DNA of 40,670 nt, from positions 1 through 40,670 of the forward strand of contig JYFJ02004584.1 in assembly GCA_000934665.2 (NCBI GenBank), given 5' to 3'. Source of the DNA: Catajapyx aquilonaris. Taxonomy: Eukaryota. Below, piece after piece: positions 1,407 to 38,503 of the stretch. The notes below the pieces were generated by a model. That model ran no database searches, was not told the origin of the DNA, and worked only from the letters and a program-made list of their open reading frames with translations. The position numbers and the translations under genes are program-made. The stretch's first letter is position 1, and every line of letters begins with the position of its first letter.

Positions 1407-2874
1407 CTAAGCTTCATCCTCTGAGCTGCTTTCATCCTCAAGGGAGTTGCGTGCACTCTTTTCTGCTTCAGCGTGCATTGCTGCTGGTACCCTCTCATGT
1501 ACCCCCTTGGTGTGCTCTCCAACCCAGCTCAGCTCAAGTTCAAATGACTTGTCCTTCACCTCATCATGGACAGCATACACAATGCGAGCTGCCTCCTTCA
1601 CCAGCTCCTTCAGGCCCATGTTTTCTGGGGTCAGCTTCTCCATCTCTGTACGGGCTGCTTGGCGAGCTTTACCAACTGCAGCTGCTCTGTACCTGAAAAG
1701 AAAATGGAAAATCTGACTTGTCACAAATAAAGCCAGAGCAAATATTTAGGCAAGGCCATCCCGTATTCCTGCATGTCTTTTTGCGAAAAGTAATGTACGG
1801 TAACTCTTCCCCAGATATAACAAGTGTTTATGAGCCGTCAATGTTGATTGATTGAAGGGAAAGTGCTGCTTCACAAACAACACAAATGTTGAGTAGTTCA
1901 GACCAGGGTCCCCTACATGGTTGCCTACCCCACCCTAACCAGGGTATTGTCTTCACGTAGTCCTTATGGGGCGGCCATATTGGATCTAGATTGCATGCTG
2001 CAGGATAGGGAATTGGCAAACGATTCTTTTTTGTTTTTTTCAATTGTTTTTTTTTCACTGCATGTAGCTCCTATGTGATTTAGATCCAATATGACGGAGA
2101 GACAATACCCTGTCTAGGTGGGGGAGGCACTCATGTAGGTGACCCTGGTTCAGACAAGGCAAAGTTCAGACAAGCAAAGGCTTTCTAATACTCCTCTTTC
2201 TTCACAAGCTGTCACTTTAGGTTTAGGGGCTTTGTGGCAGGCACTTTGCTTCCTTTCTCAACCCCTCCCTATTCACCCAAAGTTCACGGGATTAGTCTTC
2301 AGCAAATTGGACCCAGACATGTTTGTGATTTGGCCACCCACCACTCACATTCTCTTCACCACACTCCCACTTCACTCTCACCAACTTATTCTTACCCAGC
2401 AACATATCCAGAGGGCTCGACGGTCATGAGTTGTGGCCCTTCAATGGGATCCCAGCTTCCAAACAAGACAGAGCATCCAAAAGGTCTGGCTGCTGAATAG
2501 AGGGTGTAGGCATGGACATAGGAAGCAAGGCGTTCTGACAGGAATGCAACAGGAATAGGTGACTCATATTCCAGCCTGTAGTTAGAGGCCTCTACCCTGG
2601 CTGTCTCTGCAAGCCTACGAGCATCTGCCAACAATCCTGCCACAGCCATTCCCACATGACGGTCAATTGAGATGATGCGGCGGTTGGCCCCTGCTACGTA
2701 CAGCTTGGAGCCTACCAATTTCTCCACAGCTAGGACCACTCCATCCTTGCCACGGAGGGCAATGGCTGTCCCACTGTTCTCAACAGCCTTTTGGGCATAT
2801 TCTACTTGGAATACACGCCCATCTGGAGAAAACTGAGATGCCGAAAGGTCATAGCCAGTGCCAATCGAGCTCAT
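1407..2874 (-). CDS. PSMA3: Proteasome subunit alpha type-3 (20S alpha7), 254 aa
   Basis: Exons 2874-2396 and 1692-1407, joined by a phase-2 GT-AG intron (GG|gtaag ... ttttcag|G). N-terminus [27 protein letters not shown] is the alpha-subunit signature; [22 protein letters not shown] and an acidic tail follow. An acceptor directly before the ATG (ttccag|gATG) implies a 5'UTR intron. AATAAA on minus at 1318-1323. Confidence 0.97.
1904..2147. mobile_element. hAT-like MITE (244 bp) in the PSMA3 intron
   Basis: Termini cagggtcccctacatg / catgtaggtgaccctg. Further inverted blocks cagggtattgtct/agacaataccctg and catattggatcta/tagatccaatatg. Perfect 8-bp TSD gttcagac at 1896-1903 and 2148-2155. Confidence 0.85.
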
Positions 2875-4035
2875 CCTGGAAAAGGAACAGTTATCATTAA
2901 ATAATAAAGTACAGCTTGTACTGACTACAGAGTAGCGAAATAGCAACCTAATAGTTATGTACGGTACAACGGGAATAATATATTTCAACAATGTCAACAA
3001 TTAAAAGAACTATTGAAGGCCATTAATATCTGTTCAGTACCTGAGGGACTACAAACGTGACACATGTAAGCAGAGTCACTGCAGCCCTGTAAAAGTGTGG
3101 AGCACAGTTCTGAATTTTAATGATTGTCATGTGTAGTGATTTGAGGGCTGTGTTGGAAAAAGGTGACAACCCTATTCTTTGTCATTTTTGACCTAAACAC
3201 TTAGCAACCATATAAAAGACATGACAAACATTTTGGTATACTCCAAGTTCACGTATCATGCACGAGATGGCCACATGGACTAGATCAAAACCAGCATTCC
3301 CTATGATTTGTTAAGAGAATGCAAACTTCAATTCGCTCTCCTGAAAAATTACACTTTTTGTGTGTATCACTTTTTCCACCACACCCCTCATTTGTGCACA
3401 TGCAATATCCAATAAGGCCTAAATAACAAGTCCCTATACAAGATTGGTTGCTAGAAGTCCCTAGCACTTCTCTTTTCCACTAGAAGTAGACTGTAGTTGC
3501 CAGCTCCTCTGACAGTGAGTGCCGAAGAAACCAAGAAGTGAAGGTCTGCCGTGCAACTTACAGAGTGGGGTGGCTGGAGTCAATTTTGTAGCAAGACGTG
3601 GCTGTGTTAACAGACCATTAGGCAACTGCAACATTGATTCACGTGGACACCATAGCCTCCACAGTATATCTCAGATTTGCTACCTACAGTCTCGACCATT
3701 GCCCAACCTCACCCCCACATCCACAACAGTACTGTTGTCAATATCATTGTGCCTTTCTCCCATCAGTGAAACGAGAATTACGCAAGTGGAATGCAGTAAT
3801 TGTAGTATGGTACATTCAGACTTGCAGTTCTCCCATCTTCTGCCATCTAAACCCTTAAACAGTAGTCCTGACATGTAACAAATTTTCCCCTCTCGTAAAG
3901 TCAAAACATGTTCTGATGTCCTTCTCCCTCCTGTGCTCCTCCATTACATGGCGTGATGCCCTCTGCCATGAACTGTGCATTATTCGAGCATGATCTTGCA
4001 AAACGTCAATCGGTCTCTCTCTTCCCTTTTCCTAC

Positions 4036-4814: not shown

Positions 4815-6127
4815 ATGGTACGTTACTCCAGGGAAGCGGACAACCCAACCAAGAGTTGCAAGTCTCGTGGGAGCAACCTCCGGGTGCACTTCAAGGTGAG
4901 GAGGTGTGACCAGTGTTCATGCCAGAACTAGTAGATTAAACCTCGGTGAATTTTTTTTTTTTGAGCAACCACTTGTTCCTGATTTGCTATTGAATGTGTA
5001 ACAAATCTGTAGAGGGGGACAAGTATCTTGAGCCCACAATCCACAGACAAAATTATTTTGGATGTGGAACTCCCCAGTGAAGAATGTCAATTTAGATCAT
5101 TTTGATATCACATTGGCTCACTGTTGGGCTGAGGGGCTACGCTTTGAGATACTGTGGTAACACACTGACATCTTGCACTCTCAGCATCCTTTTCTCAGGC
5201 TGAAATGCAACAGAAACCTGTGAATGAGTAGGGACATGTAAATGTTGACTCATCTGTGTGCCATTATGTGGCATTTTCCATTGCTGTGTTTTAGACATGA
5301 AAAATTTGAGAGATGAGAAATATCAAGCCAGAAATTCATAGGTACGATCAGCTGTACTTTCCATAAGTACATGACAGAGCTGTTGTAATGTTCATACATG
5401 TAATGAAAAGGAGTATATTTTAAAACTTCAGTGAAGTCAACCCATTATGAGTTAGAGGCACTTGTCCGTTGTATTATTTTCTGTGGGGCTTGAAATTCAT
5501 GATTAGCTGCAAGCAGTGCAATTGGTGAGCCATCAACTTGGTTTTCATGAACCCTTTTGCAGTACAGAGTAATGTGTCATGTCATTTATAATGGCATGGT
5601 GGTTGTGAGAGTGTCAGTATGACTAATGATTACTTTCTGGGACATTTCAGAACACCCGTGAGACAGCAGCTGCTATCCGCAAGATGACCCTACGTCGTGC
5701 AGTCCAGTACCTAAAGAATGTTCTGGCCCACAAAGAGTGTGTCCCATTCAAGCGGTATAATGGAGGGGTTGGCCGTTGTGCCCAAGCCAAGGTTTGGGGC
5801 GTCTCCCAGGGACGTTGGCCAAAGAAGTCAGCAGAATTTGTCCTTCAACTGCTTCGCAATGCGGAGTCTAACGCAGACTACAAGGGGCTGGATGTGGACC
5901 GCCTGGTTGTGGACCACATTCAGGTGAACAGGGCCCCAAAGATGAGGCGCCGCACATACAGGGCCCACGGTAGAATCAACCCATACATGAGCTCGCCATG
6001 CCACGTGGAGCTTATTCTTACGGAGAGGGATGAAGTGGTGCCCAGGGCCACCCAGGCGGAACAGCCTGCTAAGAAGAAGGTCAGCAAGAAGAAGCTGGCG
6101 AGGCAGAAGCTGATGGCCAGGGATTAA
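4815..6127 (+). CDS. RPL17: 60S ribosomal protein L17 (uL22), 185 aa
   Basis: Exons 4815-4895 ([27 protein letters not shown]|gtgag) and 5651-6127 (ttcag|[12 protein letters not shown]...[10 protein letters not shown]...[22 protein letters not shown]). AATAAA at 6161-6166. Confidence 0.98.
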
Positions 6128-10001: not shown

Positions 10002-11209
10002 TTAAGAGTGTGTGGCAAGAAAAGTGGCTGCTAGTCCTAGTCCAAGTCCTGCAACGAGAAGAGTGCGCCAGATGCGGTTCTCCAGGTCATCTGGAGCTGG
10101 AAAATGTTGGCAAAGTCCCTCCTGGAAAAAAAACCAAAATTAGAAAATCTACCTTCACAATGAACACGGTGCAGATGTGAATTCTTCAATGAATGTGGCA
10201 TGGGTCCAGAGGCCGGCAACGACCTTTGACATTGACTATGTCTATCCTGACAAGTGTGGATAGGAGTAGAAAAATAGACTGAAATGATAGTGCTATAGTG
10301 ATGCTATTGGAAGGGCTTTACTGTAAATGTGTGTAAGTCATTGTCACACTTTATGGCAAGCGAAAGGAGCAAGTAGAAATAACCTATGACATTTGTACCA
10401 GCATGGACACCAGCTAACACCATAAAACCTATTCCACATGGATGTTTTTTTTTTCCCCAGATTGGAATGACACCACTGTATGCAGCTGTGGCTATGCACA
10501 ACAGCTGCATGTGTAGCATATGGACTGAACTAACCCATCCTCCATTTGCTTGCAGGAATGGAATGGCAGCCTCCCCAACATAATGTGCCAGGAAGTATGC
10601 TGGCTCCTCTCTCAGATGGCGCAGCTGCCTTTGTTCAGAGCAGTACATGGCCAGCCTGGCAGCAAATGCATACAAGGCAACCAACCTCCCCCAGGTGACA
10701 CCCCCAACTCCACCGTCAACTCCACCTTCTGCCCCTGCAGCAAACAGCTCCTGAGCTACCCCCCTGAAGGTAGCATATGCCGTGTCCGGCTGGGGTGCCA
10801 GCCTCCGCACCATACCCGTAAAGAGAATGGAATGGCGTTGGAGCAGCTCCGAGACACAACGATGAAGACATGCTCCCACACGGCCATCGGGCGGGGGAAC
10901 TAGACCTAAGCGATTACGCACAATAGCCAGAGCAAGGCTTTCAGCTTCAAGTTCAAGGGTGTGGCGCTCTGTTTGGGTAGAAACGTCCGTAAAGGAGGTC
11001 CTTGGGCACTCTTTCCTGGGCACAGGTCCACTACTTTCCACCTGGGTAGATTCTCCACTGGCTCTAATGCTAGTCTCTTCGGCTTCCTCTTGGGAAGCAA
11101 CACTATGTTCAGACACACGAGGTCCCACCAGTGCACAGCGACTATCCACACAATCCTCAGAGCTGGGTTCAGAATCGCCTGTCCTTGCCCAGCCCATCAC
11201 TCGGTTCAT
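10002..11209 (-). CDS. Multi-domain Bcl-2 family apoptosis regulator (MCL1-like features), about 264 aa
   Basis: Exons 11209-10535 and 10121-10002. BH3-region LHRCVSELLQRHSILFTGMVRRL, BH1 ELF...VTWGRLVALYAF, BH2 FLQANGGW|EGLCQHF split by the family's typical phase-0 intron after GGW, and C-terminal TM IWRTLLVAGLGLGLAATFLATHS. The start could instead be the ATG at 11197. Exon acceptor at 11258. Confidence 0.9.
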
Positions 11210-11311
11210 ACTATGGTTCAGCACAATGTGGTCTTGCTTTGTTCACTTGCACAGCATCTGCAAGAAAATAGGGCCAGTTACTTGTCACATAGTCATTGCA
11301 AATACCTTTTA

Positions 11312-18000: not shown

Positions 18001-21000
18001 AGCACTAAAGACGTAAGCTGAAGACCTCACAGATATCTGTTACATGTTGCAAATTATCAATGAAAACCTTTGTCACAGTTCACACTCACCTCAAATATGA
18101 CAGACTGGTTGTTTTTGCGCAGGTAATATGCAAATACGTATGTGTACATGAGAGTCTGGCGACACTGGCAGAGGATGTCAACAGCCTTGCGCAGGAACTG
18201 CACTTCAATCCAGCTCATATTATGCTGCTGCATTTCCTCCATCTTCTCTTTGACTGCAGCGTAGAGTTTGTGCTCAAACTTGAGGGATTGCATGTGGTTC
18301 ATATATCGGTTGCAGTAGAAAAGGTAGCGTTGGAGGGCTGCCCTGGACCTCTCCTGAGCATCCCTGGCAGCCTTTGCCTCCTCTTCATCATACCGGTTGC
18401 AGTTGTACCACGAGGAGCCATGGGGCTCCCAGGGACCCAAGCACACCCAGCAGAAGTCTGCCTTGCAGTTCTGGTTCTTGCAAACCATATGGTTGCATCC
18501 CCCATCCTTTTCAATTGTCACGTTGCACTTCGGACATTCCTACAAAAAGGGATTCAACGTATAAATAGATTGTGAGACCAGAAATCTGGAATAAGTACTA
18601 ACAACAAAGACTATGCCCAGAGATGCATATTTTGCCAGACCTCGGGCAAGAAGGCTCAATGCACATGTGCACTACACTCCCACACTCTGTCGCTGCATCC
18701 AGAAAAACAATGACAACAAAAACCAGCCACAAAGAATCGAACATGCCTCACTGATTCCATTCACAACCACTATGTTTAAAAGTATCTCCTATGTCAGGGG
18801 TGGGCAATCTACGGCCCGCAAAGCCAATTTGTGAGGCCCGCACAAAAATTTCGGAATTCCTGAAAATTTTGAAAAATTGAAATTGAAAATTTTTGTGCTT
18901 GTGCCTTTCTTTTTGATTCTTTTTAATCCACAAGAACATTGTTTTTTTATTTATTTATACAGACCATTTTCATTGACATATTTAGCTAATTTTATTGATT
19001 TTCAGAGAATTTAATGATAATTTAAGCAATTAATGGAAGTTCATTTAAAACGATGGATATAATTATCATTGTCAACTTTTTATTAATTTGAAATTACATT
19101 TCAACTGATTAAAAAGATACAATTTGACGGCCGCATCTAACAAAAGAAATTCTTTCGTTAGATGCGGCCCGTCAAATTTCTTAAAATCTCTGTGGCCCAC
19201 AGAGAAAAAAGGTTGCCTACCCCTGTCCAGCTGTCCTATATGATCAGGTGTTCCAGACTGATATTCAAAAGTTTGTACATTATAAATCCTGCTACAGCCA
19301 GCTGTAACTTTGTAATAAGGTTATGTATTAAAAATAAACATTACAGCTTTTGGGAAGATACAATTTCAGCTCAACAACACCACAGCTGGTGAGATACTTC
19401 TGAACCAGTGAGCTCCAACAACTTTGCTTCTGGGGCTCAATAGCTGAAGTCACTGGCCGTCTAACTTGACCCCTCTCATGAGAGAAGTACGTTATCAACA
19501 TATCAGATGGCTGTTGCCTATGGAGTGCACCCTCTGTATTTATCCCACAAGGCAAGGGTAGCACAGAAAAATATTACAATGCCAAGAGGTCAAAATTTTG
19601 CCAGGTATTTCGTTACTTGAACTGATGCCGAGTGTAAGAAACTGTTCTTATTTTTATGCACTTTGTAGTGCTAGTATTTTTCTCTTCAATTTTCAAAAAA
19701 GTTTGAGTTCAACACTACACTGACAGTACCGGGCTCAATGAAATTAAAATATTAGAGACACTGTACCTTTGTATTGGCAGCAATCCAATTAGATGTTTCA
19801 GAGTCATCATCGCATTTCTTGATCCACTTTTTGAGCAGGGTACATCTAACAGGGTCATGCCAGTTTTCCCCACACGCAAAGCAGAATGTGTGCCCACACT
19901 TGCAGCGGACAGGTCGAGCTTCCACATATTGGACTTTTATTGCATTCGAGCAGTCCGGAGAAGGACACCACCTCAGCAATCGGTTGCACTGTTGAATATC
20001 ATAAGTTACTGGATAATTCCATATAAATATGCATTTTGAAAATTATCAAGTACTTTCTGACAAATATAAATATGTGGTGATGAGTACCTCATCCACTGTA
20101 ATCAATGCTGTAGTCACAGATTGGCTATAACAAAACAGATTTCCTAGTGGCATGAGACAAACCAACTTACTTCAACAAAGCTGTTGGTGATGAGGTGCTG
20201 GTACTTGAGCCGAACCTTTGGGTCCCGCACCAGGCGCATGACATTTGCATCATCTACAAGAATGTCACATCCATGGGCAGCACAGGCAATGGTCTGACCT
20301 ACTCCTTCTTCCATTATCTTGGTTGTCAAATACTCTCCCCAGCATTGGGTGCAGAAGCGATGACCACATTCAAGACCAGTCATTATCTAACAGCAAATGT
20401 GAGAGTAAGATATGTGAGATTGACATTAGACTGTTATCCTATAAAGTTTAAAGTTCTTGAGTTCCCCCAAGGTATGTGTGGCTTCATGAGTTTTCCCTGC
20501 CCCCCACCCCCTCCATGTCACCTCTCTTCCACCTCTTTTACCTTTTGCTGCATTATGGTATTAATATAATGTGTCACTCTTCATTTCAATACATAACATT
20601 CCAGCATTATTTTATCCATTGCATTTCGGCAATAAATAGCAAAAATACTGCTGCATGCATCCTTACACTGCATGTTTTCCTGCAAATCCCACATAGAACA
20701 GGGTAAACGGCACGACATATCCCATAGCAAAAATCATGGTCAACTTACAGATTTACCTGCATGATTTTACTTAAAAATTAAAACCTGTCATTCACGACAA
20801 TGCACTCCATCAACTAATAACAAGATTATTTAGAGCAATAAATATTTCACTGGTATGCTCAAGTCGTGCACTGTTTACCTTGGATTGGAAGAAATGTAGA
20901 GTTGCCAGGTTGAGTGTTACTTTTTCATATGGATATTGTATTCTGAGATCCCTTTGCAACTGTACTTAAAAAACTCACGAAAACCCACATAAACATAGGC

Positions 21001-24516: not shown

Positions 24517-25470
24517 TGCAGAAACCGCACTGGAATATCTGGCGCTTACTGGTGCTCAACTTCAATGCTTTCATTCCAGGCACATTCCGTTGAGTTGGCA
24601 TGCAAAAAAGCTTCATTCAACAGGCCAAGTCCAAGGCTGTGAATGATGTCAAAGTTTCCTAAAATACAGTTGAGTAGTGGTGCTAATGTAACGGATATGT
24701 GGAAGTGAATACTTATACTGTTCAGAGATATTTTAAAACTTTCCATGACAATAATTGCATCGATACAAATGAAACATGTCCTACTGAGACGTGATGTAAG
24801 CGTTCCATGGAAACTCTGGACACTTTGCGTAATTGTTGAAGTAAAATTGTGGCCCAGATAATGGTATCAACAACACGAGAACATGCGCCTTCCTCCCTAA
24901 TCATTTCAATGGAACTAGGTAAGTGCCATTGAAGTTTGCAATCAGACATAGCAGGGCATACACTTCAATAAACTGAACAAATGTGCTCATGTATGTTGCA
25001 GAACTTTAAAGTTTATCATTATCTGGTAGGCGTGTGCCACATGTACGTGCACTGTGGATTAGCACTGCAGCTGCTTTAGAGCTAAAACTGCATTGTGCAA
25101 TACCTGTGACAGCTGTGCCAACAAAGAACATTTGTTCAGGGTAAACACTCTTCAATACTCGATGTTCTATATGGAATTACAAGGACATTGTGGGCACAAT
25201 CACTACTGAAAGCATGACACTGGCAACACCAACTGTGGGTGGTGGCTGCAGTCGCACCTCAACAACGGTGTTGACCTCCTTGATGCAGTCGACCATGTGC
25301 TGCACAATCTCTTCGGTGGATAGGACCTCAAAGGGGTAGTCGTCCAGTTCCGGCTGCTTGTCCCTTCCGCTGACATTCTCCACCTCCATCATGGCCAGGT
25401 CCACGTCGTCCCCGCTGGACTCATTCCCGGAGTCCACCTCCTCGTACAGCGCCTCATCCTCTGCGTTCAT
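15086..25470 (-). CDS. ARIH1: E3 ubiquitin-protein ligase ariadne-1 (RBR family), 503 aa
   Basis: Eight GT-AG exons with consistent phase: 25470-25258, 23065-22916, 22188-22123, 20386-20171, 19988-19767, 18539-18090, 15899-15787, 15167-15086. Acidic N-terminus, RING1 (CEICF...CGHRFC), IBR (WCPSPDC...[11 protein letters not shown]), RING2 with catalytic [10 protein letters not shown], Ariadne domain ending [15 protein letters not shown]. Confidence 0.97.
16169..17693. mobile_element. Kolobok-like non-autonomous DNA transposon (1525 bp) in ARIH1 intron 6
   Basis: TIRs gggggcactacagtca / tgactgtagtgcctcc, flanked by perfect TTAA at 16165-16168 and 17694-17697. Purine (GG) termini with a TTAA target fit Kolobok rather than piggyBac. 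Confidence 0.8.
18795..19225. mobile_element. hAT (Charlie-like) MITE in ARIH1 intron 5
   Basis: TIRs caggggtgggcaa / ttgcctacccctg with subterminal ggcccg motifs and an AT-rich core. TSD is not clean. Confidence 0.8.
24068..24190. mobile_element. 123-bp MITE with 8-bp TSD (hAT- or P-like) in ARIH1 intron 1
   Basis: TIRs caagggggtaaccact / agtggttaccccctcg (1 mismatch). TSD ctgcaacc at 24060-24067 and 24191-24198. Confidence 0.75.
24450..24515. repeat. (TAA)n microsatellite
   Basis: About 22 consecutive taa units; the source of the poly-L/Y/I ORFs in the track. Confidence 0.95.
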
Positions 25471-25719
25471 CCTGACTGCCTGTTATAGCCCTCTCTCTCC
25501 TCTCTGGCTGACCACCACCAGACAATCCTTCTTCAAGGCTTCCGTCACCCCACTCGAACAACAACAACCTTCGAATTTCTCCACTCGCGAAGCAGCCTTT
25601 TTGATCAAGGTTGACTCACTCGCATTTTTCTCTCTCTCTCTCTGTGTCCCACCCCTCTTTCTTCTTCTTCTTCTTCTCCTCGTTCCCCCCAACGGATCGT
25701 CCACTGTTCTTTTTTTTTT

Positions 25720-26133
25720 TTAATCTTCCNTTTTTTTTTTTAAATCTTCCAGTGGACCCAACTCGGCGCGCGTGACCCCCCGACCGACCTGCAGGTGGAC
25801 TGGGGCGTGCGTGCGGGCGGGGTGGGTTCGGGCCCCGCAGTGTCTACAACGGTGGGTGATGGCGCGGGGCCTGCTTGCTGCTAGGCTGCGGTGGTGGTGG
25901 AGGACGCCTGACTGCCTGCCTGCCACCCGCGGATATTCTCCTGTCCTCCTCCTCCTCCCCNTTCCCCCCCCCCCCTCCCCCAGTCCTTTTCCTCTAGCTG
26001 CGCCCGACTGTTTGCCCTCTGACGTCACGGGGCGCGGTGCATTCTGGGTAGGGGGGAAGTGTAAGGGGGGGGCAGCACTTTTGTCTGGCCACCCTGGGGT
26101 CCGCGTCTGGCAACCTGTGAGGGGGACCACAAC
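25720..26133. promoter_or_regulatory. GC-rich bidirectional promoter ARIH1 / ZAD-ZNF
   Basis: Divergent ATGs at 25470 (-) and 26134 (+). CpG-rich, GC box ggggcggg-like near 25815, CRE palindrome tgacgtca at 26020-26027. Confidence 0.65.
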
Positions 26134-27760
26134 ATGGCGGGCAAGGAGTGCTTGATTTGCGGCAAAAGTTTGTCGGAGGCCAGCAATTTCTACCTGGCTG
26201 GAGGGACTGTCACGTCGGGTACTCGCACGCTGCTGTCGGAGTGGCTGGTGGCGGCGTCCAAGGCGGAGGTGCGGTGGAATCTGGACTGGGGAGAGCGGTT
26301 CGTGTGCAGGGGATGCTACCTGCTCATCAACCTGTCAGATCGTCTGAAGGCGCAGGCGGACAGGCTGAGGAAGGAGGTGCTGGAGAAGTTGAGGGACAGC
26401 AGGAAGCGCAAGGAAGAGACCAAGGCGGGCTCTGCTGGAAAGAGGGTGGCGACAGGAAGGGAGCAGGCCAAGACTGGAGTCAAGAGGATCAAGCGGGGGA
26501 ACAACAAGGAAGGAGGGAAGAGGAGGCAGGGAGGGCAGTGCGAGGAGTGCGGGAAGATATTCAGGTCTACACAGTGTCTGGAGGCAAGTTGCAGAGGCTA
26601 TGTTGTGACCATCAGTTTGAATAGAAAACTGGCAAAGCAATAATGTTCATGTCTCAAATTATTGCTGACTTCGAACCGGTAAAAATCATGGGCCCCTTAT
26701 AGTATCCTCACCTTGTCATTGTGGTGGGATGGCTCGCATCTCCCCTGCAACCCCATGAGCTATGCTGGCAGTAGCTTCGTCTACTGGCAGGGCCTCCCAA
26801 ATCAGAATGGTCTCTGGGATAGGCGACAGACTTTCCTCTCTTCTTTTTTCTCATTGTTTCTCTCACCATCTGTCCCACTTTTGTGTCTTCTTATAGCCAG
26901 ATAGCCATAGTTACTTGGGATCCTTCTTAATAAACCAAACCAAAAATGCATGGCATGGGAAGACACTTTTAAACCAACAATGCATGCATCTCAGTCACCC
27001 TTTCTCACTCATGGTCTTGGGAATTAATTTGGTAATGATGACTTGCCAGCTTGTCTTAATATGATGTGATTGCTTACAGGCTCATCGAATGGCTCATCGT
27101 GGCGAGTACCGCTTCCGTTGCCATGTGTGCCAGAAGGGCTTTAATCTGCGTCCATCACTTCGTATGCACCTCCGTCGTCATTCCTCTGAGCGCCCCCTTG
27201 TGTGTGAGCTGTGTGGTGCTGGTTTCCGTCACTCTGCCTCTCTCCGACTCCATCAAGGCTGGCGGCATGGCCCACCAGCCTTTCCTCCTGCCACCCCCTA
27301 CCCTTGTCCTGATTGCAACCGGCAGTTTTCCATGCGGTCCCACCTAGTTACACACAGACGGCGAGCTCACACTGGGGAACGACCGTATCCATGTGACATT
27401 GATTCTTGCCCTATGAGATTTGTCACAAAAAATGAGCTGCAGAGGCACCAGTATGGACACACTAAGAAGTTCCCACATGTGTGTGACCAGTGCCCTCGAG
27501 GATTCAGGTCAGAGCTGCTGCTCAGGCGCCATAAGGAAGCACAACATAGTATGGATGACACATTAGAACATTGTGATGAAGACGATGAGATTGGAAGGGA
27601 AGAAGAGGTAGCAAATCTAGAAGAGGAGGAGGAGGAGGAAGGGGAAGGCCTGTCTTCAGATCAGCAGACTGTGCTGCTGCATCTTCCCAATCTCATGGTA
27701 CCTGAGGGGTCCACCACCCTCACAGTGCAATTCCTTGAGAATAATAGTGAAGCACTGTAA
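26134..27760 (+). CDS. ZAD-domain C2H2 zinc-finger protein, 376 aa, six fingers
   Basis: Exons 26134-26583 and 27080-27760. N-terminal CLIC...VCRGC pair (ZAD-like). Finger 1 CEECGKIFRSTQCLE|AHRMAH is completed only by splicing GAG|gcaagt...ttacag|GCT. Five more C2H2 fingers, an HTGERPY linker and an acidic tail. Confidence 0.9.
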
Positions 27761-30177: not shown

Positions 30178-33100
30178 CTATGCATCAGCTTCATCTGCAA
30201 TGAGCTTCCTCAGCTGCTTCACAATGGTCTCCTGCAGCTTCTTCTTGTCTCGTTCACTCTTCTTCAGCACTGAGAACACTTTCTTCTTGTCTGCTTCCCT
30301 AATCCTGCAATGAGATTTGTTGTCATGATCGTTCCTGCTACCCGAGAATTATTCTAAAATTTATTCTTGAATTATGGCCATTGGCAGGCTTGGGTGTAAT
30401 ATATTCTAACCTCATTGTAAGCCAACCATGTAAGACTGAGTTTGACTTAGAGAAAAAGCATTCGCCAAATCTAGGGTGAAAGATCAGAAGGGCATATGAC
30501 CCATTTGTTAACATTGGTTCATACACCCTTCTGATCTTTCACCCTCGAAATAATGCTCCCCATAGGCTGAAACCCTTACTTTTCTAGCAGCATGAGAGCC
30601 CTTCGTGGAGTGACCCGGCTATATTGTGGTCGCTCGGATTTCCTTTGCTCACAGAGATAGTTGGGCCAATCCCATCGCATAAAGAGAGCCAAGAGCTGCC
30701 GCAATTCTTCAAAACATTCTAGGAGTTCCTCTGGTGCCAGGCTTGGAACTGGCTGGGAAGCTGCAAACTCTGCCAAAAGCAAAGATATATTGACAATTTG
30801 TTGCTGTCACAAGTTAATTATTAAGACTCACTTTCACATTCTTGCAAGTCAAGGTAGAGCTGCTGCAGTGCACCTAGTGAAATCTGACGACGCTCGTCAT
30901 CTTCTACAAGCCGCAGCAATGAATGGTTCAAATGCAGACATGCCGTCTTACAGGCTGTCTCTGCCACATTTGGCTGGGTGGGAAGAGCAGAATGGATAAC
31001 GTTAAAACCAAGCTAAGACTGCAGTATTTTTTTGACACTTCCATAACAATATTATTCTTACGAGGCTTCACATCTGTCATTGTAATACTGCAGGGATTTA
31101 CATATTCCCTACAGAGGTAATTTTTTTGACCGAGGACAAATTTGTCACGGCAGCATTTGTGGGAACACAAATCCCACTAATGGTTTTTGCATGCAAAATA
31201 TCTCAATAGGGTTGTGCCTGAGTATTTCAAGTTTTTGTTTGGAACCCTCTAGAAGTGCTTCGTGCAGGTGTACAATAACCCACCGGCAAATTGGTGAATG
31301 CCTGAAAAGTTGACTGCAGGAAGGCAATGAGATCCAGCATGTATGCTGATGGCTCTGTCAACTCAGCTGCCTCAGGTTGCAGCCAGTCAACCCCTGCTAA
31401 CCCAACCAGGTCATCCACCTTGGTCTTCATCTTGGCATAAATCTCCTTCTCTGCCTCCACCCGAATGTCTGCAAATGTGGACCCAGCTTGTAGCCGGGCT
31501 GCTTTCGCAGCTTCTTTGCTGCTCACCCCAGTCAGGTTGGAAACAAACTGGTCCAGAAACACTGATGCTCGCTCCAAATGGGTTGTGTTGTATATGATCT
31601 GTATCAGCTGCAGCAGTCCCAAACCTGGCTGCCTCACCAATGTCAAGAGACACCCACTAAGGGTGCGAACTATCAACAAGTTAGCACTTTTTCGCAACAA
31701 TTCATCTGTCTCAGCTCGGCTGAAACCCAACCCCTCCGAGAACTTGAGGCAGGCATAAACAAACTCTTTAACTTGTGCATATACTCGAGGAACCATGGAA
31801 GAAAAGGGAAGGCGCCTTGGATATGGACTTGACTCCAGTGATTCATCACGAAATGGAAAGGATTCCAACACTTTGTGAAACTCATCCTCATTCGCCACCT
31901 GCATAGGTGAATAGTTGTCCTCTCCGAATATTTCTCGGAAGTTATGCACCCATTGGAGCATCAGGACTTCACTGTAATGGTCATGAATCTCGTAAAGGAG
32001 CTTCAGGAGTTTGCCCACTGCATAGCCATAGCTCTGAAAAAGTGGCAAAAAAATTAGGGTAAGTTGGATGTCAAGATTTAGCTTTGTGAATTGCTTTGTA
32101 ATATCAAATGCTCATGTTGACAATATTATCTTCAGTGGGAATTATTTTGCATGACTCTGATTATTATCAACAGCAGCAGAAGTTATAAAAGTTGGGCATT
32201 TTAATTTAACTAGCATAGATGCATAATCTTGTCAGTGTTAGAGGCTTTGCATAAAGAGAGATTGGCCAATCCAGGTTTTTGGACACCATGCTTTGTCTCA
32301 AAGAGCTGGAATTCGAAGTCAATAGTTTATTGTACATTTTACTGTGACTTCCTGACAGCAACCATGTTTGTGATCGTTGCTAGTTGTTTCAAAGTAGCAG
32401 TATTGCAGTACCACTCACAGAAAACAATGTCTTGAATTCCCGAGCTTCTAGATGGCAAAATATGACAAAATATATCACACAAAACACCTGGTTGACCAGC
32501 CTCTCTCCAGACTAGGCCTCTAATCAGTACAAATGCTAATTCCATCTGACTCAGTTGTCTCACCTTTAACGTGTTTGAGAAGAGAACAATGACCCTCTTG
32601 ATCCTCAGCATGAGATTGGCATCTGTGCAGTAAGCTGAGTGTGTTCCTAGGACTGTAACCACCCTGGTGAGGGCCATGTCCCAGAGTGATTCCAGATATG
32701 CTCTATCCACCAATCCTCCAGTTGTGTTGAGCAGATGGTCCTCCACAACAAAGAACCCCACAATCTCCTGGAAGTATCCCATATACCCCTCTATGCTCTC
32801 ATGCATGTTAATGGGAGGCTGCAGAATAAGACGCAGTTGCTTGCGACGCTGCTGCCTGTAGTAGTCTTCCAAAGCTTCTCTCTGCCCCAGCACAGTATAA
32901 ATGTGAACATAACGGTACACGGGGGAGAAGTCCACATGGTCCTGGGCACTTGCGCTGACCTCCTCTTCATCAACTGCTGAGCCATTGGTGGTCGAGAGAC
33001 TGCCATTGGGAAGGTGGGATGTAGGGGTGCGCTGTTGTTGCTCTCCAGCAGCTGCTTGCTCCATAGCCACTGCTCCAATAGTCGAGGAATTCTTGCGCAG

Positions 33101-35021
33101 GCCTTCCAGAAAGTCCTTTAATTCCATCATTGCTTCCTCCTTGATGTTCTCCCTCATCCTGGACATCAAGTAACATATAGGAATAATTATTTACTGGCAA
33201 CTTTTGATTTTCAGAGATAACTATTGCTTCTTTAAAATGTTTATCAAAATACCAAATTGCTAAGAACTGTTTAAAGTGTTAAGAAAGAGCTATTCCATGG
33301 ACCAATGCAAAGGATGACACTTGAGCATTGTTTTTTCCTTTGTCAATGAACTTGAGGAGCTGCAAGATGTCTTTCATATCTCAAATTTGGCTGTCGCTTA
33401 ACAGTCTCTACCATTGGTCTTACTTTGGTATGCTGGCCTCGATCTGGTGTGCAAAGTGAAGATGCTTGACAGGTGGTAGAAGTGAATGCTGCAGCTGATC
33501 CAGTGTCCTTAAAGCCTGGTAATGCTTCTGCCTTTGAGCCATCTGCGCTTGGAGCCTGGCTAGTGCCTGGAGTGGGGCCAGGCATGCCTGGAGCTGTGCC
33601 ATGGCTGCAGCCACCCTCCTCTCTGCCCTCCTTTCTTTGGCCAATTCTTCCTTTCGCTTGGACAACCGTGAACTGGCATCACCCAACACAGCTCCAACAG
33701 CTTTCACCTCCTCACGTAGTAGTCCAGCAGGAATTCGAACACCAACCAACTCCCTGATTGACTCAATGAATCCCTGGTAATGGGCATTGCAGGTGCGTTC
33801 TATGTCACGATCATGAGCCTTGATTCTTGTGTCCAGGCGCTCCAGGAACTGCCGATGGGTGTCACCATCATACACAGCCCTGAAAAAAGAGGCAACATGC
33901 TGAGAAAACTGGATCGACTGAAAACCTACTGCAACGTACTATTTGTAAAAACATGCAGCCCATAACTGAAACACTTCCAAATTGCCACTCATATGCCACA
34001 AACAAGGTGTTTCACTTCCTCCCTGGCAATACAACTAAGAACGCCTGTCAACCATTCAGTATCTGACGTATCCATTTCCAAGGATTTTTCTTTTCTTCTT
34101 CTCATGCAACTTTTCCACCAGATTGGTACCAAAATGTACCTTCCTCTTTCCTTTGTCAACTTCCTAGGAGCAACTCCAGGAATCCCATCCCCATAAAATA
34201 TTATCCATCTAATTTTTATGGCAGGGGTAGCTGAGAATGATCTGATTACAGTGAATTCTCAATTCATCATCTTCGTAATGACCCCTGAAAACAAAGCTGG
34301 ATATGGGTCAACAATAAATGCCGAAACCTATGTTAAATAAAATGTGTTACAGACCCTAGGAATTGAATGATGAGTCTGGGAAAATGATACATCAGAAAAT
34401 GATAGGTCGATGTTTCATTGCAATAAAATTGACACCTTAAATCAGAGTCAGTTATTTCCCCCGGTAAAATGTTTTATTCTGCAACTAGTTTAATTCTGAT
34501 GGTTGACAGATAAGCTACGATACCTTCTACCAACTTCCATGCATAAACCATAACAAGTAAAACATTACTGAAAATAAAGTCTTGCAGCCACACAACTAGG
34601 TAGGCAGCAAGAGGCTGCGTCAACGTGACAGTGCCATCGTGTCCACACCTGACAACCTGTGCGACCCCTCCTGGCTCATAGGCCTCCAGGTCGTCCAGCA
34701 GCCTGTCCAGCGGTGGTGGGGCAGAGGCCCTCCTGGCCTGCGCTGCCACCAGGGCCATCTTCTCTTCTTCTTCTTCTCCTGGCCCTCCCTGCCCAGCTGC
34801 ACCACCACCACCGCCCCAACCCTTCCAACCCAGACGCCCACGACGCCTGCGTCAGCCCGCCGAACATAAATCGGGCCTGGTCCTGTGCAACCCAAAATAA
34901 CCAGGCAGAAATGAGGGTGATTATTATACCTGAAGGTGGATGCCCTGAAGTCGTCCACCGCCTCGATCTCCTGCAGCTGGTGCTCCAGGCGCTGGACCTT
35001 CAGGGAGTTGCTCCTCTCCAT
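30178..35021 (-). CDS. EXOC6: Exocyst complex component 6 (Sec15), about 783 aa
   Basis: Exons 35021-34930, 33879-33424, 33158-32564, 32033-31284, 30973-30832, 30769-30580, 30304-30178, all GT-AG and in phase. Motifs HDRDIERTCNAHYQGFIESIRELV, VDFSPVYR, QEIVGFFVVED, PFSSMVP, LRQLLALFMRWDW, KKSERDKKKL. Confidence 0.95.
30473..30545. repeat. 73-nt near-perfect palindrome in the last EXOC6 intron
   Basis: agggtgaaagatcagaaggg ... cccttctgatctttcaccct forms a 20-bp perfect stem; the inner part is also largely complementary. Confidence 0.85.
34649..34758 (-). CDS. EXOC6: Candidate alternative N-terminal coding exon of EXOC6
   Basis: aagATGg start, MALVAAQARRASAPPPLDRLLDDLEAYEPGGVAQVVR, ending AG|gtgtgg in phase 2, the same phase as exon 35021-34930. 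Resembles the Sec15 N-terminal helix. Confidence 0.6.
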
Positions 35022-35149
35022 GGCCTCCTCTCGATTCAGACGGTCGTCAGCGAGCAGGTCGGATTCATTCAGAGGGACAGAGAAAGATGAAAAGGGCGGA
35101 TCCAATGCGCCGGCTCCATTTTCAGCCACACAAGACGTCCCATCACCTC

Positions 35150-35670
35150 GGGGCTGGACCTAACCCAGCCGCTTATCGTTACGAGCGGAATGGAGAGCTG
35201 CTTATTGAAGCAGTTGGCAATCGGCTGTTTTCATGTCACACTTTGCCAGATTTCAGCGTTCGTAAGAATTGCACAGTGACAAACCTTGGACAAACCAGTC
35301 AGTGGCATAGTCAGCACATTTCACCAGATGTCCACAGATCAATTTAAAGACGTGGCAATGTAGCAACATGTAGCTGCTATCACACTCACTAAATAGCTGC
35401 TTTGTACAACTAGTTACCAGCTGCACTTGATTTCATATACAAATGAAATAGGACATAATTTGAACATTTCTTCATTAGAAATGTGAGTGCGTACCATTTC
35501 ACGCGCAGTAATTATAAAATGAGTTGAGGTGAACATGTGCACCTGGCATCCTGCCGACCACCTTCTCCAATCCAACATGGCCGCACCGTAGAGCTGACAG
35601 GAAAGTAGTCTGCTCCTGCAATATTGGTGGTTCCTGCGAGTGAAGTGCTTGTGCTGCAGTCACGGGACTG
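35150..35670. promoter_or_regulatory. Bidirectional promoter region EXOC6 / SLC35C2
   Basis: Divergent ATGs at 35021 (-) and 35755 (+), only about 730 bp apart. Confidence 0.55.
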
Positions 35671-35754: not shown

Positions 35755-38503
35755 ATGAGCCGCCACAGTCTGCCTTCCCACTACCGGCCGCAATGCTTCT
35801 CCTCCGCCTTCTTCTGGGTGGCCCTGAGGACACTCAGCCTCATCCTTCTCTACTACTGTCTCTCCATCGGACTCACATTTTATCAGAATTGGGTCATGAA
35901 GGTATGCCAGGTGTTACATGCTGCAGAGGGTGTTTGCTTAAACATGTGTGACCCATGCTTGGTAAATACCAGAGACCCGCACATCCACAGGAATCATTGA
36001 ATCACTTTTGAACCATTGTTATTAACTAAGTGCTAATTTTTTTTACCAGTGTGAATGGCAGAGGAAGGCAACAATTTTCAAGACTTATTGTAAAACGTAC
36101 AAAATGCACTGTTGTTCGTTCATAATTAACTAGAATGTACCAAGGATTTAATCTCTAAAGCATGGTGTCTCAAATGATTTAAACAGCTGTCCAATTTGGG
36201 AGAGCAAAAGAGCCCATAGCTCCTTACAGAAACGTTTGCCTGGAGGAAATTTCCATTCTCCAGTTAAACTCTAATAAATAATTTTAATTTTTAATTAGCC
36301 TGTGAGTCTCTAATGGACCCACTGGTGTAAATGTACATGATTCTAGTGAAGTGAAATTCATATATATGTTTGGACTGCAGCACAGGGATGTTTCTACAAC
36401 CCCCTGAATGGATTTACTTTACAACTTGTCATTCGGAGGGTCTAGCACTTAAATCTAAATTGGTGAAAATCTGGTCGACTCACATACTTGGGGATGATAA
36501 AAAAGTCATTCATAACGAAGGAGTTTAAAATGCGCTTGCAGAAGTGAATCTTCATTCATTGGCTGCTTAAATCATAAATATCATGTATTTATGAGATCCA
36601 AAACATTTCCCCCAGGCAGGCTTTTCCACTGAATAAATTAATACAGTCCCAAATCTGGATACGTAACCATATGTGTTCAGTTGTTAAAACAGACGTTTTA
36701 AAATTCAGACCTGGTTAGTAGATGCAAGTTAAACAATGTTGTGTACTTTTATAACATTAATTCTTGAAAGTCACGATTATACTAATGAGTGTGGGGAAAG
36801 TAAAATGCCAGATATGCAGGATTGTTCTTGGTGCAGGTGCAAAACTCCAAGGTCGATAGAAGTCATTACTTATTCATCTAAGCCGCTAATACTGTACATA
36901 CCTTATGTAGAGTAGGGGTTCAATGTGGCTTCTAACTGTGCCCATGTGCATTATTTCAAGTTGTCTAGTTTCCTCTTGCTAGTAAAATCCATTATCAGTG
37001 TCGCAGCATTTCAATTAAATGCTGCATTTAAAAGGGAATTCCCTAAGCTTGATAAGTTTTTTTAAACTTCACCAAAAGTGCACGTAAAATAAGTTTTGAA
37101 TGAGTTCTGTCCATAAATATGACATTCACACATTCATGTTACCTCCAGGTTACCTCTTGCTGTCATGCTCATTTTGATCATGTTGAATTTTCACTGTTTC
37201 TTAACTTGTATATTGATTTATTTGCAGCAAATTAACTTTCCACTGCTGATAGTGGCCTGTCATTCAGTGGTCAAGTTTTTGCTGGCCTTTTTGTGCCGCT
37301 GCTTTTGGCAATGTGTATCTGGGAAACCACCAGTCACAATAGATTGGGGTCCGTATATAAAGAAGCTGGCACCAGCTGGAGTCACCAGTGTTTTGGACAT
37401 TGGCTTATCTAACTGGAGCCTGGAGCTGATAACTGTTTCGCTGTGAGTTCATCAATTCTGGGTTTTAAACTTTTCAGCAAAACTGATACCTGATTGTTGC
37501 AGGTACACCATGTCAAAGTCAACGGCAATAATTTTCATTTTGATTTTTGCCCTCATGTTCAAGCTGGAGAAAATGGTAAGTTGATTTGTACTCCCTTGTC
37601 AGTGCATACTAGACTTCCTGGAGTACTAAAATTGTCCATTATTTCAGCATTGGACCCTAGTGGTGATAGTACTGATGATCTCTGGAGGACTGGTCATGTT
37701 TACATACAAGTCAACCCAATTCAACTTGGAAGGGTTCTTATTAGTCATGAGTGCATCTCTTCTGAGTGGTCTAAGATGGACTTTAGCACAAATGGTTATG
37801 CAAAATTCCAAGCTGGGATTGGACAACCCCATCCACATGGTGTACCACATACAACCGTGGATGATCCTCACCATAACTCCCCTTGCCATTGGGCTTGAAG
37901 GTGATAACATTGAATGCATACTTATCCCATATTTGATTTCCTTGACAGTGTGGAAAAAATGCGATAGATCCAACTGTGTGAGGTGCAGATGCTTTTAAGA
38001 TTAACATGTCCTAACTATTTCCAGGTCAGCACCTTCTGGAGAACTGGAATTCTGCAGGGGAGCAACGTCCTGCAGAAATTCTTCACTGGAGCTCTGTAAT
38101 CCTTGCTGGAGCATTTCTTGCATTCCTTATGGAAGTTGCTGAGTTCTTGGTAGTTTCCTTCACATCCAGCCTGACCCTGTCAGTGGCTGGAATTTTCAAA
38201 GAGATATGCACACTAGGTTTAGCTATTCTAATCAATGGTGATCAGATGGGAATTGTTAACTTTATTGGTCTACTTATATGCTTAGGTGGAATAACATTCC
38301 ATGTTGTGTTCAAAGCTACCTATAGTGATGTGTATTCATCAAGGCGGACCTCTGTAAACAAAATAACCAACAGTAGGGATGGGAGTCCATCTTCCACACT
38401 GAGGTACTCTCAGCTGCCTCTTCTTCAAGACGACCTCAGCAATGGGGGAGATGAGGAAGAAGACGAGATGGAAGTGTACAGTGCAGCAGTTGAGAAAACC
38501 TAA
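35755..38503 (+). CDS. SLC35C2: Solute carrier family 35 member C2 (nucleotide-sugar transporter family), about 388 aa
   Basis: Exons 35755-35901, 37228-37442, 37503-37575, 37648-37900, 38025-38503. Motifs [67 protein letters not shown]. Confidence 0.94.

Follow-up and report, generated by a model that had tools for sequence, protein, structure and literature searches.

A probable pair of alternative first coding exons in the Sec15/EXOC6 gene of Catajapyx aquilonaris

The exocyst is tied to Rab-marked vesicles through Sec15, and the N-terminus of Sec15 belongs to the coiled-coil assembly core of the complex. In a 40,670-nucleotide (nt) stretch of Catajapyx aquilonaris DNA (GenBank assembly GCA_000934665.2, contig JYFJ02004584.1, positions 1 to 40,670; here called the window), we analyzed the 5' end of a Sec15/EXOC6 gene for which an initial annotation, made from the sequence alone, had proposed two tandem homologous N-terminal exons. 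We think it probable that this gene has two mutually exclusive alternative first coding exons, A and B, that arose by an old tandem duplication. Exon A is seen spliced to the common exon 2 in a transcript contig, and exon B is assigned by its likeness to one class of first coding exons annotated in other arthropods.

Gene identity and exon layout

The gene is compact and lies on the minus strand at about 30200-35114. Its identity as Sec15/EXOC6, already given in the initial annotation, is established because the N- and C-terminal Pfam domains of the family are both present. The translation of exon 2 matched EXOC6_Sec15_N (PF20651) with an expectation (E) value of 1.1e-31 and 110.5 bits against a cutoff of 27.2, and the domain runs on from exon 2 into exon 3. 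Sec15_C (PF04091) was found in the open reading frames (ORFs) at 31230-32111 (E 5.7e-70) and 30579-30806 (E 4.8e-10). A homologue search with the Sec15_C exon returned 395 sequences at E≤0.001, to which cluster look-ups added isoforms. The best homologue had 54% identity, and branchiopod crustaceans ranked highest; among the best 120 of the 395, all those with a source name were called exocyst component 6, 6B or Sec15, or carried an orthologue-group label (EOG090X01NK) or an uninformative one (hypothetical, unnamed). With the exon 2 protein as query, a homologue search limited to longer sequences gave no match, and a PDB sequence search gave chance-level matches only (E≥0.009) and no Sec15 N-terminal structure. 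The gene is laid out as follows (GC, guanine plus cytosine fraction).

35022..35114, minus strand: 5' untranslated region (UTR) of the exon A transcript; its outer limit is the 5' end of a contig, not a mapped transcription start
34930..35021, minus strand: exon A, A-type (type I) first coding exon, from the sequence and the contig joint 34930>33879
34759..34929, minus strand: spacer between exons A and B, intronic in exon A transcripts and presumed to hold the promoter and 5' UTR of exon B; GC 0.60-0.65
34649..34758, minus strand: exon B, putative B-type (type II) alternative first coding exon, from the sequence and the B-type matrix
33880..34648, minus strand: intron 3' of exon B; exon A transcripts lose it as the 3' portion of a 1050-nt intron
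33424..33879, minus strand: common exon 2 with most of EXOC6_Sec15_N, both ends from contig joints
32564..33158, minus strand: exon 3, from the contig piece 33157-32564 (joint cut +1), with the donor AAG|GTGAGA after 32564
30202..32063, minus strand: downstream exons with Sec15_C, approximate bounds from tblastn of Thrips Sec15 and Pfam

Exon A starts at the ATG at 35021-35019 (context GGCCATGG) and runs for 92 nt, or 30 codons plus 2 nt, to a phase-2 donor at 34930 (...TTCAG|GTATAA). Exon B starts at the ATG at 34758-34756 (context GAAGATGG) and runs for 110 nt, or 36 codons plus 2 nt, to a donor at 34649 (...GTCAG|GTGTGG), likewise in phase 2. Each ATG is preceded by a purine at -3 and followed by G at +4. 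The two exons are adjacent, being 171 nt apart, both end in CAG|GT, and both fit the same strong acceptor at 33879 (CTCTTTTTTCAG|G), whose first base, G, completes the split codon to R, followed by AVYDG. On the minus-strand sequence we could thus confirm the coordinates, start codons, phase-2 ends, fit to 33879, and translations with which the two exons had been proposed.

Exon A is spliced to exon 2

Only one public run (X1, kind not on record; contigs; 0.44 of sampled words) matched the locus. Over 32300-35400 it contributed a single 2,583-nt contig, which starts at 35114 and has two joints, 34930>33879 (exon A to exon 2) and 33424>33158. Because both joints are GT..AG on the minus strand, the contig is of spliced-RNA origin and proves the junction of exon A to exon 2, one of the junctions that the initial annotation had named for checking. 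In 1,236 compared bases, the contig differs from the window by a single mismatch in exon 3, at 32945 (A in the contig, G in the window, on the plus strand), which may reflect an error or a difference of allele or strain.

The frame of exon A stays open for 179 codons (34623-35159, minus strand), across the spacer and, in a frame other than its own, across exon B. Reading through from the ATG of exon A to the donor of exon B gives 373 nt, which is out of phase with exon 2; exon B therefore requires its own start site.

Sec15 N-termini come in classes in other animals

We compared the N-termini of the homologues through the residues that precede the conserved [AST][IV]Y[DE] junction. In many animals, a Sec15 protein that is otherwise identical carries several alternative N-termini. 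In arthropods, an A-type (...HELLLQEIEAIDDYWGPTFR) and a B-type (...EHEHLLYELETSDTSSVGLVIR and variants) were found in the same gene, annotated as Sec15 or "EXOC6B-like," in Thrips palmi (isoforms X2/X1, P0052/P0053), Megalurothrips usitatus, Trichogramma kaykai (P0103/P0104), Scylla paramamosain (P0020/P0155), Procambarus clarkii, two Centruroides species (Centruroides sculpturatus, P0010/P0186), Tachypleus tridentatus (P0012/P0204), Argiope bruennichi, and Ornithodoros turicata. Comparable pairs were found in Lingula anatina, Ptychodera flava, two species of Branchiostoma, and, within EXOC6, Pygocentrus and many other fishes. In total, at least 15 species have annotated genes (RefSeq and other models) in which both an A-like and a B-like first coding exon occur. 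B-type N-termini were also found in transcript-sized Logan contigs of other species, P0193 (798 amino acids, in a 3,093-nt contig) and P0351.

The arthropod pairs and the window gene are alike in having, in one gene, at least two first coding exons, each with its own ATG, that precede the same exon 2 just before [AT][IV]YDG. The A-types of these pairs end in ...EIEA[IV]D[DE]YWGPTFR and the B-types in ...LL-x-ELE...V-x-[LV][IV]R, and exons A and B of the window fall in these two classes as diverged members, with at most 50% (A) and 42% (B) identity to any arthropod class member over 26 residues. The comparison is with isoforms that are mostly computational RefSeq models. In fishes, the two alternative N-termini of EXOC6, as in Pygocentrus nattereri X1 (P0045) and X11 (P0039), are ...GNVFAELESIDLPLGTTLR and ...EHERILQEIESTDTACVGPTLR, and both, like the window exons, carry the motif before a common exon, which in these fishes begins SVYDD. 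Among the best 120 homologues, the only mammal was Choloepus (P0308 and P0310), with the canonical N-terminus. A WKK[LI] element upstream of the motif is common to Lingula, Ptychodera, Branchiostoma, and bivalves.

Some arthropods have more than two types. Decapod Sec15 has four alternative first coding exons, namely A, B, a "...FERIFTTSSLYQEIM" type, and a "...GVVDPTA..F.W" type, and scorpions, horseshoe crabs, and spiders have three or four. Such extra first exons were seen in P0017, P0022, P0122, P0127, P0131, and P0132 (type C) and in P0121, P0128, P0129, and P0134 (type D), beside which P0187, P0195, P0196, P0339, and P0342 are listed. The first-exon types end in R, M, L, or W, and each of these residues fits a phase-2 exon completed by the G of the common exon. 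For the type C and D exons that decapods and chelicerates carry, no outlier with a phase-2 donor was detected in the window near the Sec15 gene.

Exon B matches the arthropod B-type

We built an ungapped BLOSUM62 matrix from seven arthropod B-type exons, taking the final 20 residues of each, and a corresponding A-type matrix from 24 sequences; with these we scored every 20-mer without a stop in the six frames of the window (32,228 in all). With the B-type matrix, exon B came out on top, in the register that ends exactly at its AG|GT donor, with a score of 32.86 (z score, 6.1); the runner-up, at 18.29, was exon A displaced by one residue. The score of exon B was not reached in any of 100 block-shuffled windows (maximum, 29.7) or in any of 2,000 shuffles of the GC-rich island at 34640-35160 (maximum, 25.0). 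The A-type matrix put exon A first, with a score of 43.9 (z score, 7.6), and hmmsearch with the A profile detected exon A at an E value of 1e-5.

Pairwise comparison gave the same assignment. The best partners of exon A were all A-type, and 7 of the 10 best partners of exon B were B-type, including the top three, of which Thrips palmi X1 was the best (score, 51). In tblastn, Thrips X2 aligned to 35012-34911 (E 0.16), and residues 14-44 of the B-type isoform Thrips X1 landed on exon B (34725-34633; E 0.036). The GC content of exon B by codon position is 0.83/0.50/0.75, which is coding-like, and just past its donor the GC content falls from about 0.65 to about 0.35-0.41. Since the frame of exon B is free of stops and frameshifts even though it has no detectable DNA similarity to exon A, it argues for long-term constraint.

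The initial annotation had called the two exons homologous on account of a shared L-x3-L-x-[DE]-[IL]-E-A pattern. That pattern does occur at only 2 of 81,336 six-frame positions in the window, exons A and B, but it was derived from these two exons, which makes the count circular, and the direct similarity between them is weak. Homology of A and B is inferred through the family, as each exon fits one class of a family-wide N-terminal motif. By the same token, we regard exon B as more than a chance ORF on the strength of the N-termini of other species, not of the comparison of A with B itself, and on the sequence evidence it would be a diverged further case of an alternative first exon already known at the annotation level.

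The duplication is probably old

In a maximum-likelihood tree of 35 N-terminal segments, poorly resolved on its 27 columns, exon A fell within the starred pancrustacean A clade (support, 95/94) and exon B was sister to Thrips X1 (86/94), inside a clade of nine rows that holds all the arthropod B-types and Lingula X5 (93/97). The terminal branch of exon B is long (2.75). A starred bipartition (95/86) split the segments into two groups: the A-types were joined by the alternative fish exon and by the long WKK[LI] forms (Lingula, Ptychodera, Branchiostoma, bivalves), and the B-types by the canonical N-terminus of vertebrates and by the short EHER[IL][LV] forms.

The B-types are likely orthologous across arthropods, and because A-like and B-like pairs are annotated in one gene across at least 15 species, the duplication is probably old, at least arthropod-wide. 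The proposal that an exon duplication provides one gene with alternative N-termini thus holds insofar as such pairs are annotated in many animals and exon A is spliced; what changes is that the duplication appears to be old and shared rather than local to this gene.

It is possible, although we lean slightly toward doubting it, that the pair goes back to the bilaterian ancestor and that type I and type II exons have been kept side by side for more than half a billion years. Type I would then unite the A-type of arthropods with the alternative EXOC6 exon of fishes and with the long form, WKK[LI]...HELL-x-EIE, of Lingula, Ptychodera, Branchiostoma, and bivalves; type II would unite the B-type of arthropods with the canonical N-terminus of vertebrates and with the short form, EHER[IL][LV], of Lingula, Ptychodera, and Branchiostoma. 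That the fish exons are orthologous to arthropod A and B would follow from the bipartition of the 27-column tree and is not confirmed by the topology tests described below. A Danionella cerebrum model (P0271), which has the look of an annotation artifact, reads the alternative EXOC6 exon into the canonical one, with the alternative exon upstream; on the assignment of the tree, this is the A-then-B order of the window. If the bilaterian origin were true, two forms of the exocyst, told apart by the peptide next to the CorEx helix of Sec15, would be general among animals; our literature search found no mention of such a distinction.

Proposed use of the two exons

Transcripts from an upstream promoter carry exon A, and the joint 34930>33879 shows its splicing. 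Exon B, 171 nt downstream in the first intron of the exon A transcript, would most likely have its own transcription start at 34929-34759 and would be spliced from 34649 to 33879 in the same phase. The choice between A and B would then be made by promoter use, not by competition between splice sites. A TATA-like TATAATAA at 34928-34921 (minus strand), within the exon A donor site (GTATAATAA) and about 165 nt 5' of the start codon of exon B, could be an element of the presumed exon B promoter. The spacer also holds an upstream ATG at 34867-34865 (minus strand), out of frame with exon B, that opens a 63-codon frame across the start of exon B and ends at 34679-34677; this suggests that transcription of exon B starts downstream of it.

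A short purine run of the (GAA)n kind lies at 34770-34790, closely preceding the start codon of exon B. It has only one further match in the window, at 25663-25680 (18 of 18 nt), in a GC-rich block at 25000-27000. As a repeat, the GC-rich island was not found elsewhere within the window, save for short purine-run matches near 25653-25681.

The two predicted proteins would differ only in their first 31 or 37 residues. In each, the motif consists of hydrophobic-L-x-[DE]-[IL]-E, about 10 variable residues, two hydrophobic residues, and R, and it would stand directly before the long N-terminal coiled-coil helix of exocyst assembly (the CorEx motif). N-terminal coiled coils of this kind hold the exocyst modules together, and Sec15 sits in a module with Sec10, Exo70, and Exo84 (PMC11555703). 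An AlphaFold2 model of Thrips X1, made from a 45-sequence alignment, had a mean predicted local distance difference test (pLDDT) score of 82.9. In it the alternative segment forms a helix at residues 15-28, a loop, and a helix at 34-43 across the exon junction, and a 107-residue helix at 47-153 comes next; confidence is low over residues 11-50 (pLDDT block means, 53-61). The likely purpose of the putative pair is to alter contacts at or next to the coiled-coil core, or to place Sec15 under different promoters in different tissues. A likely consequence, though a speculative one, would be Sec15 variants that are specific to tissues or stages and make slightly different contacts at the N-terminus.

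Weighing the alternatives

Besides the low model confidence just mentioned, several results weigh against two alternative first exons of old origin. Exons A and B have a global BLOSUM62 score of only 7 with each other and share no DNA match longer than 8 nt. The B-type set was chosen by eye after exon B was known. With a profile of the same seven B-type sequences, hmmsearch ranked the exon B ORF only 25th of 1,149 (E 15, not significant), and the generic, A, and "other" profiles did not report it. A matrix from 29 other, mostly non-arthropod N-termini also put exon B first, yet 32 of 100 shuffled windows reached its score. A phmmer search with the 36-residue exon B peptide against 1.84 billion representatives gave no match. 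The exon B donor, GTGTGG, is sub-optimal, and the out-of-frame ATG at 34867 would dampen translation of exon B if transcription starts upstream of that ATG. In the X1 contig, exon B is uncovered and joined across; contigs lose minor isoforms, so this is silence rather than refutation. As to age, on the 27 columns available the approximately unbiased (AU) test did not reject exons A and B as sisters (p 0.246) or the 22 arthropod rows as one clade (p 0.301); single-species pairs as sisters gave p 0.09-0.16, and the chelicerate rows as one clade were borderline at p 0.0495. A recent duplication is thus not rejected by the AU tests, whose power on so few columns is too low to date the duplication.

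Exon B might once have worked as a B-type first exon and now be unused in this lineage, a relic caught before its frame decayed. In favor of this, the sole transcript contig contains exon A and omits exon B, the branch of exon B is long and its identity to any B-type low, and both the donor and the upstream ATG would suit a disused exon. We nevertheless consider this unlikely. Its ATG, 36-codon frame, phase, and GT donor are all intact, the positions that define the B-type motif are retained, the codon-position GC content is coding-like, and the absence of a minor isoform cannot follow from a single assembled contig.

A very unlikely explanation is that exon B is a chance open frame in a GC-rich, promoter-proximal intron and that its likeness to exon A and to the exons of other species is coincidental. 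GC-richness favors open frames, and three minus-strand frames are open over the island, where open frames alone mean little; the weak A/B score, the hmmsearch E value of 15, and the empty phmmer search are in keeping with it. It would have to account, however, for the first rank among 32,228 segments at the exact donor register, for the failure of all window and island shuffles to reach the score of exon B with the B-type matrix, and for the tblastn alignment of a B-type isoform to exon B, as well as for a position between an A-type exon and exon 2 and a phase that match B-type exons annotated elsewhere.

We give almost no credence to the cassette suggested in the initial annotation, in which 34846-34649 follows exon A as an internal exon and both motifs stand in tandem in one protein. 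The cag at 34849-34847, the frame-preserving length of 198 nt, and the weak pyrimidine tract are all present as described, but the upstream tract (TTATGTTCGGCGGGCTGACGCAG) is only about half pyrimidine, compared with the strongly T-rich tracts of the genuine acceptors of the gene, the 31 extra codons (rich in glycine, arginine, and glutamate) have a third-position GC content of 0.42, compared with 0.75 in exon B, and the contig passes directly from exon A to exon 2. Among 321 homologues with a recognizable junction, 289 had one copy of the motif, 26 had none, and 6 were double by regular expression; five of these six were spurious, which leaves one true tandem, a doubtful Danionella "hypothetical protein" with a linker that looks like an unspliced intron.

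Relation to known systems

Two mutually exclusive first coding exons in Sec15 would have counterparts in tandem duplicated exon substitutions and mutually exclusive homologous exons, which are adjacent, of similar length, in the same phase, and used singly, so that the resulting isoforms differ in a homologous segment alone (PMC9741552, PMC8373072). The window exons differ from these in being first exons, so that promoter use, rather than competition in splicing, presumably decides between them. EXOC6 and EXOC6B are absent from the searched supplements of PMC9741552 (a small file of 15,271 characters; other lists may exist) and PMC8373072. Our literature search found no paper on alternative first exons of Sec15/EXOC6, and the exon pair is apparently undiscussed, although it is known at the annotation level through database isoforms.

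The initial annotation had drawn a parallel with the vertebrate paralogs EXOC6 and EXOC6B. These likewise provide two Sec15 variants, but by duplication of the whole gene, not of an exon, and that separate event has no bearing on the window exons. The human EXOC6 RefSeq transcripts presumably differ at the N-terminus. There are two of them, the second of which is known as an accession in a table (PMC6436036).

If the conserved choice of first exon is real, animals would assemble two slightly different exocysts from one Sec15 gene, presumably under different promoters. The pair is visible in database isoforms of insects, crustaceans, and chelicerates, and probably of other phyla, so exon B is of interest mainly as a further witness to an old feature of Sec15. 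It also matters for annotation, as a gene model built from the available transcript alone would omit exon B.

Gene neighborhood

The neighborhood is gene-dense. A TPT/EamA-like transporter at 37494-38500 (plus strand) is transcribed divergently from Sec15, and the window further contains the following.

27065-27757, plus strand: C2H2 zinc-finger protein
18060-18539, minus strand: exon of an Ariadne/IBR E3 ligase
10307-11242, minus strand: Bcl-2 family protein
5630-6124, plus strand: ribosomal protein L17 (L22p family)
1410-3000, minus strand: proteasome alpha subunit

A compact genome fits with the short introns of the Sec15 gene.

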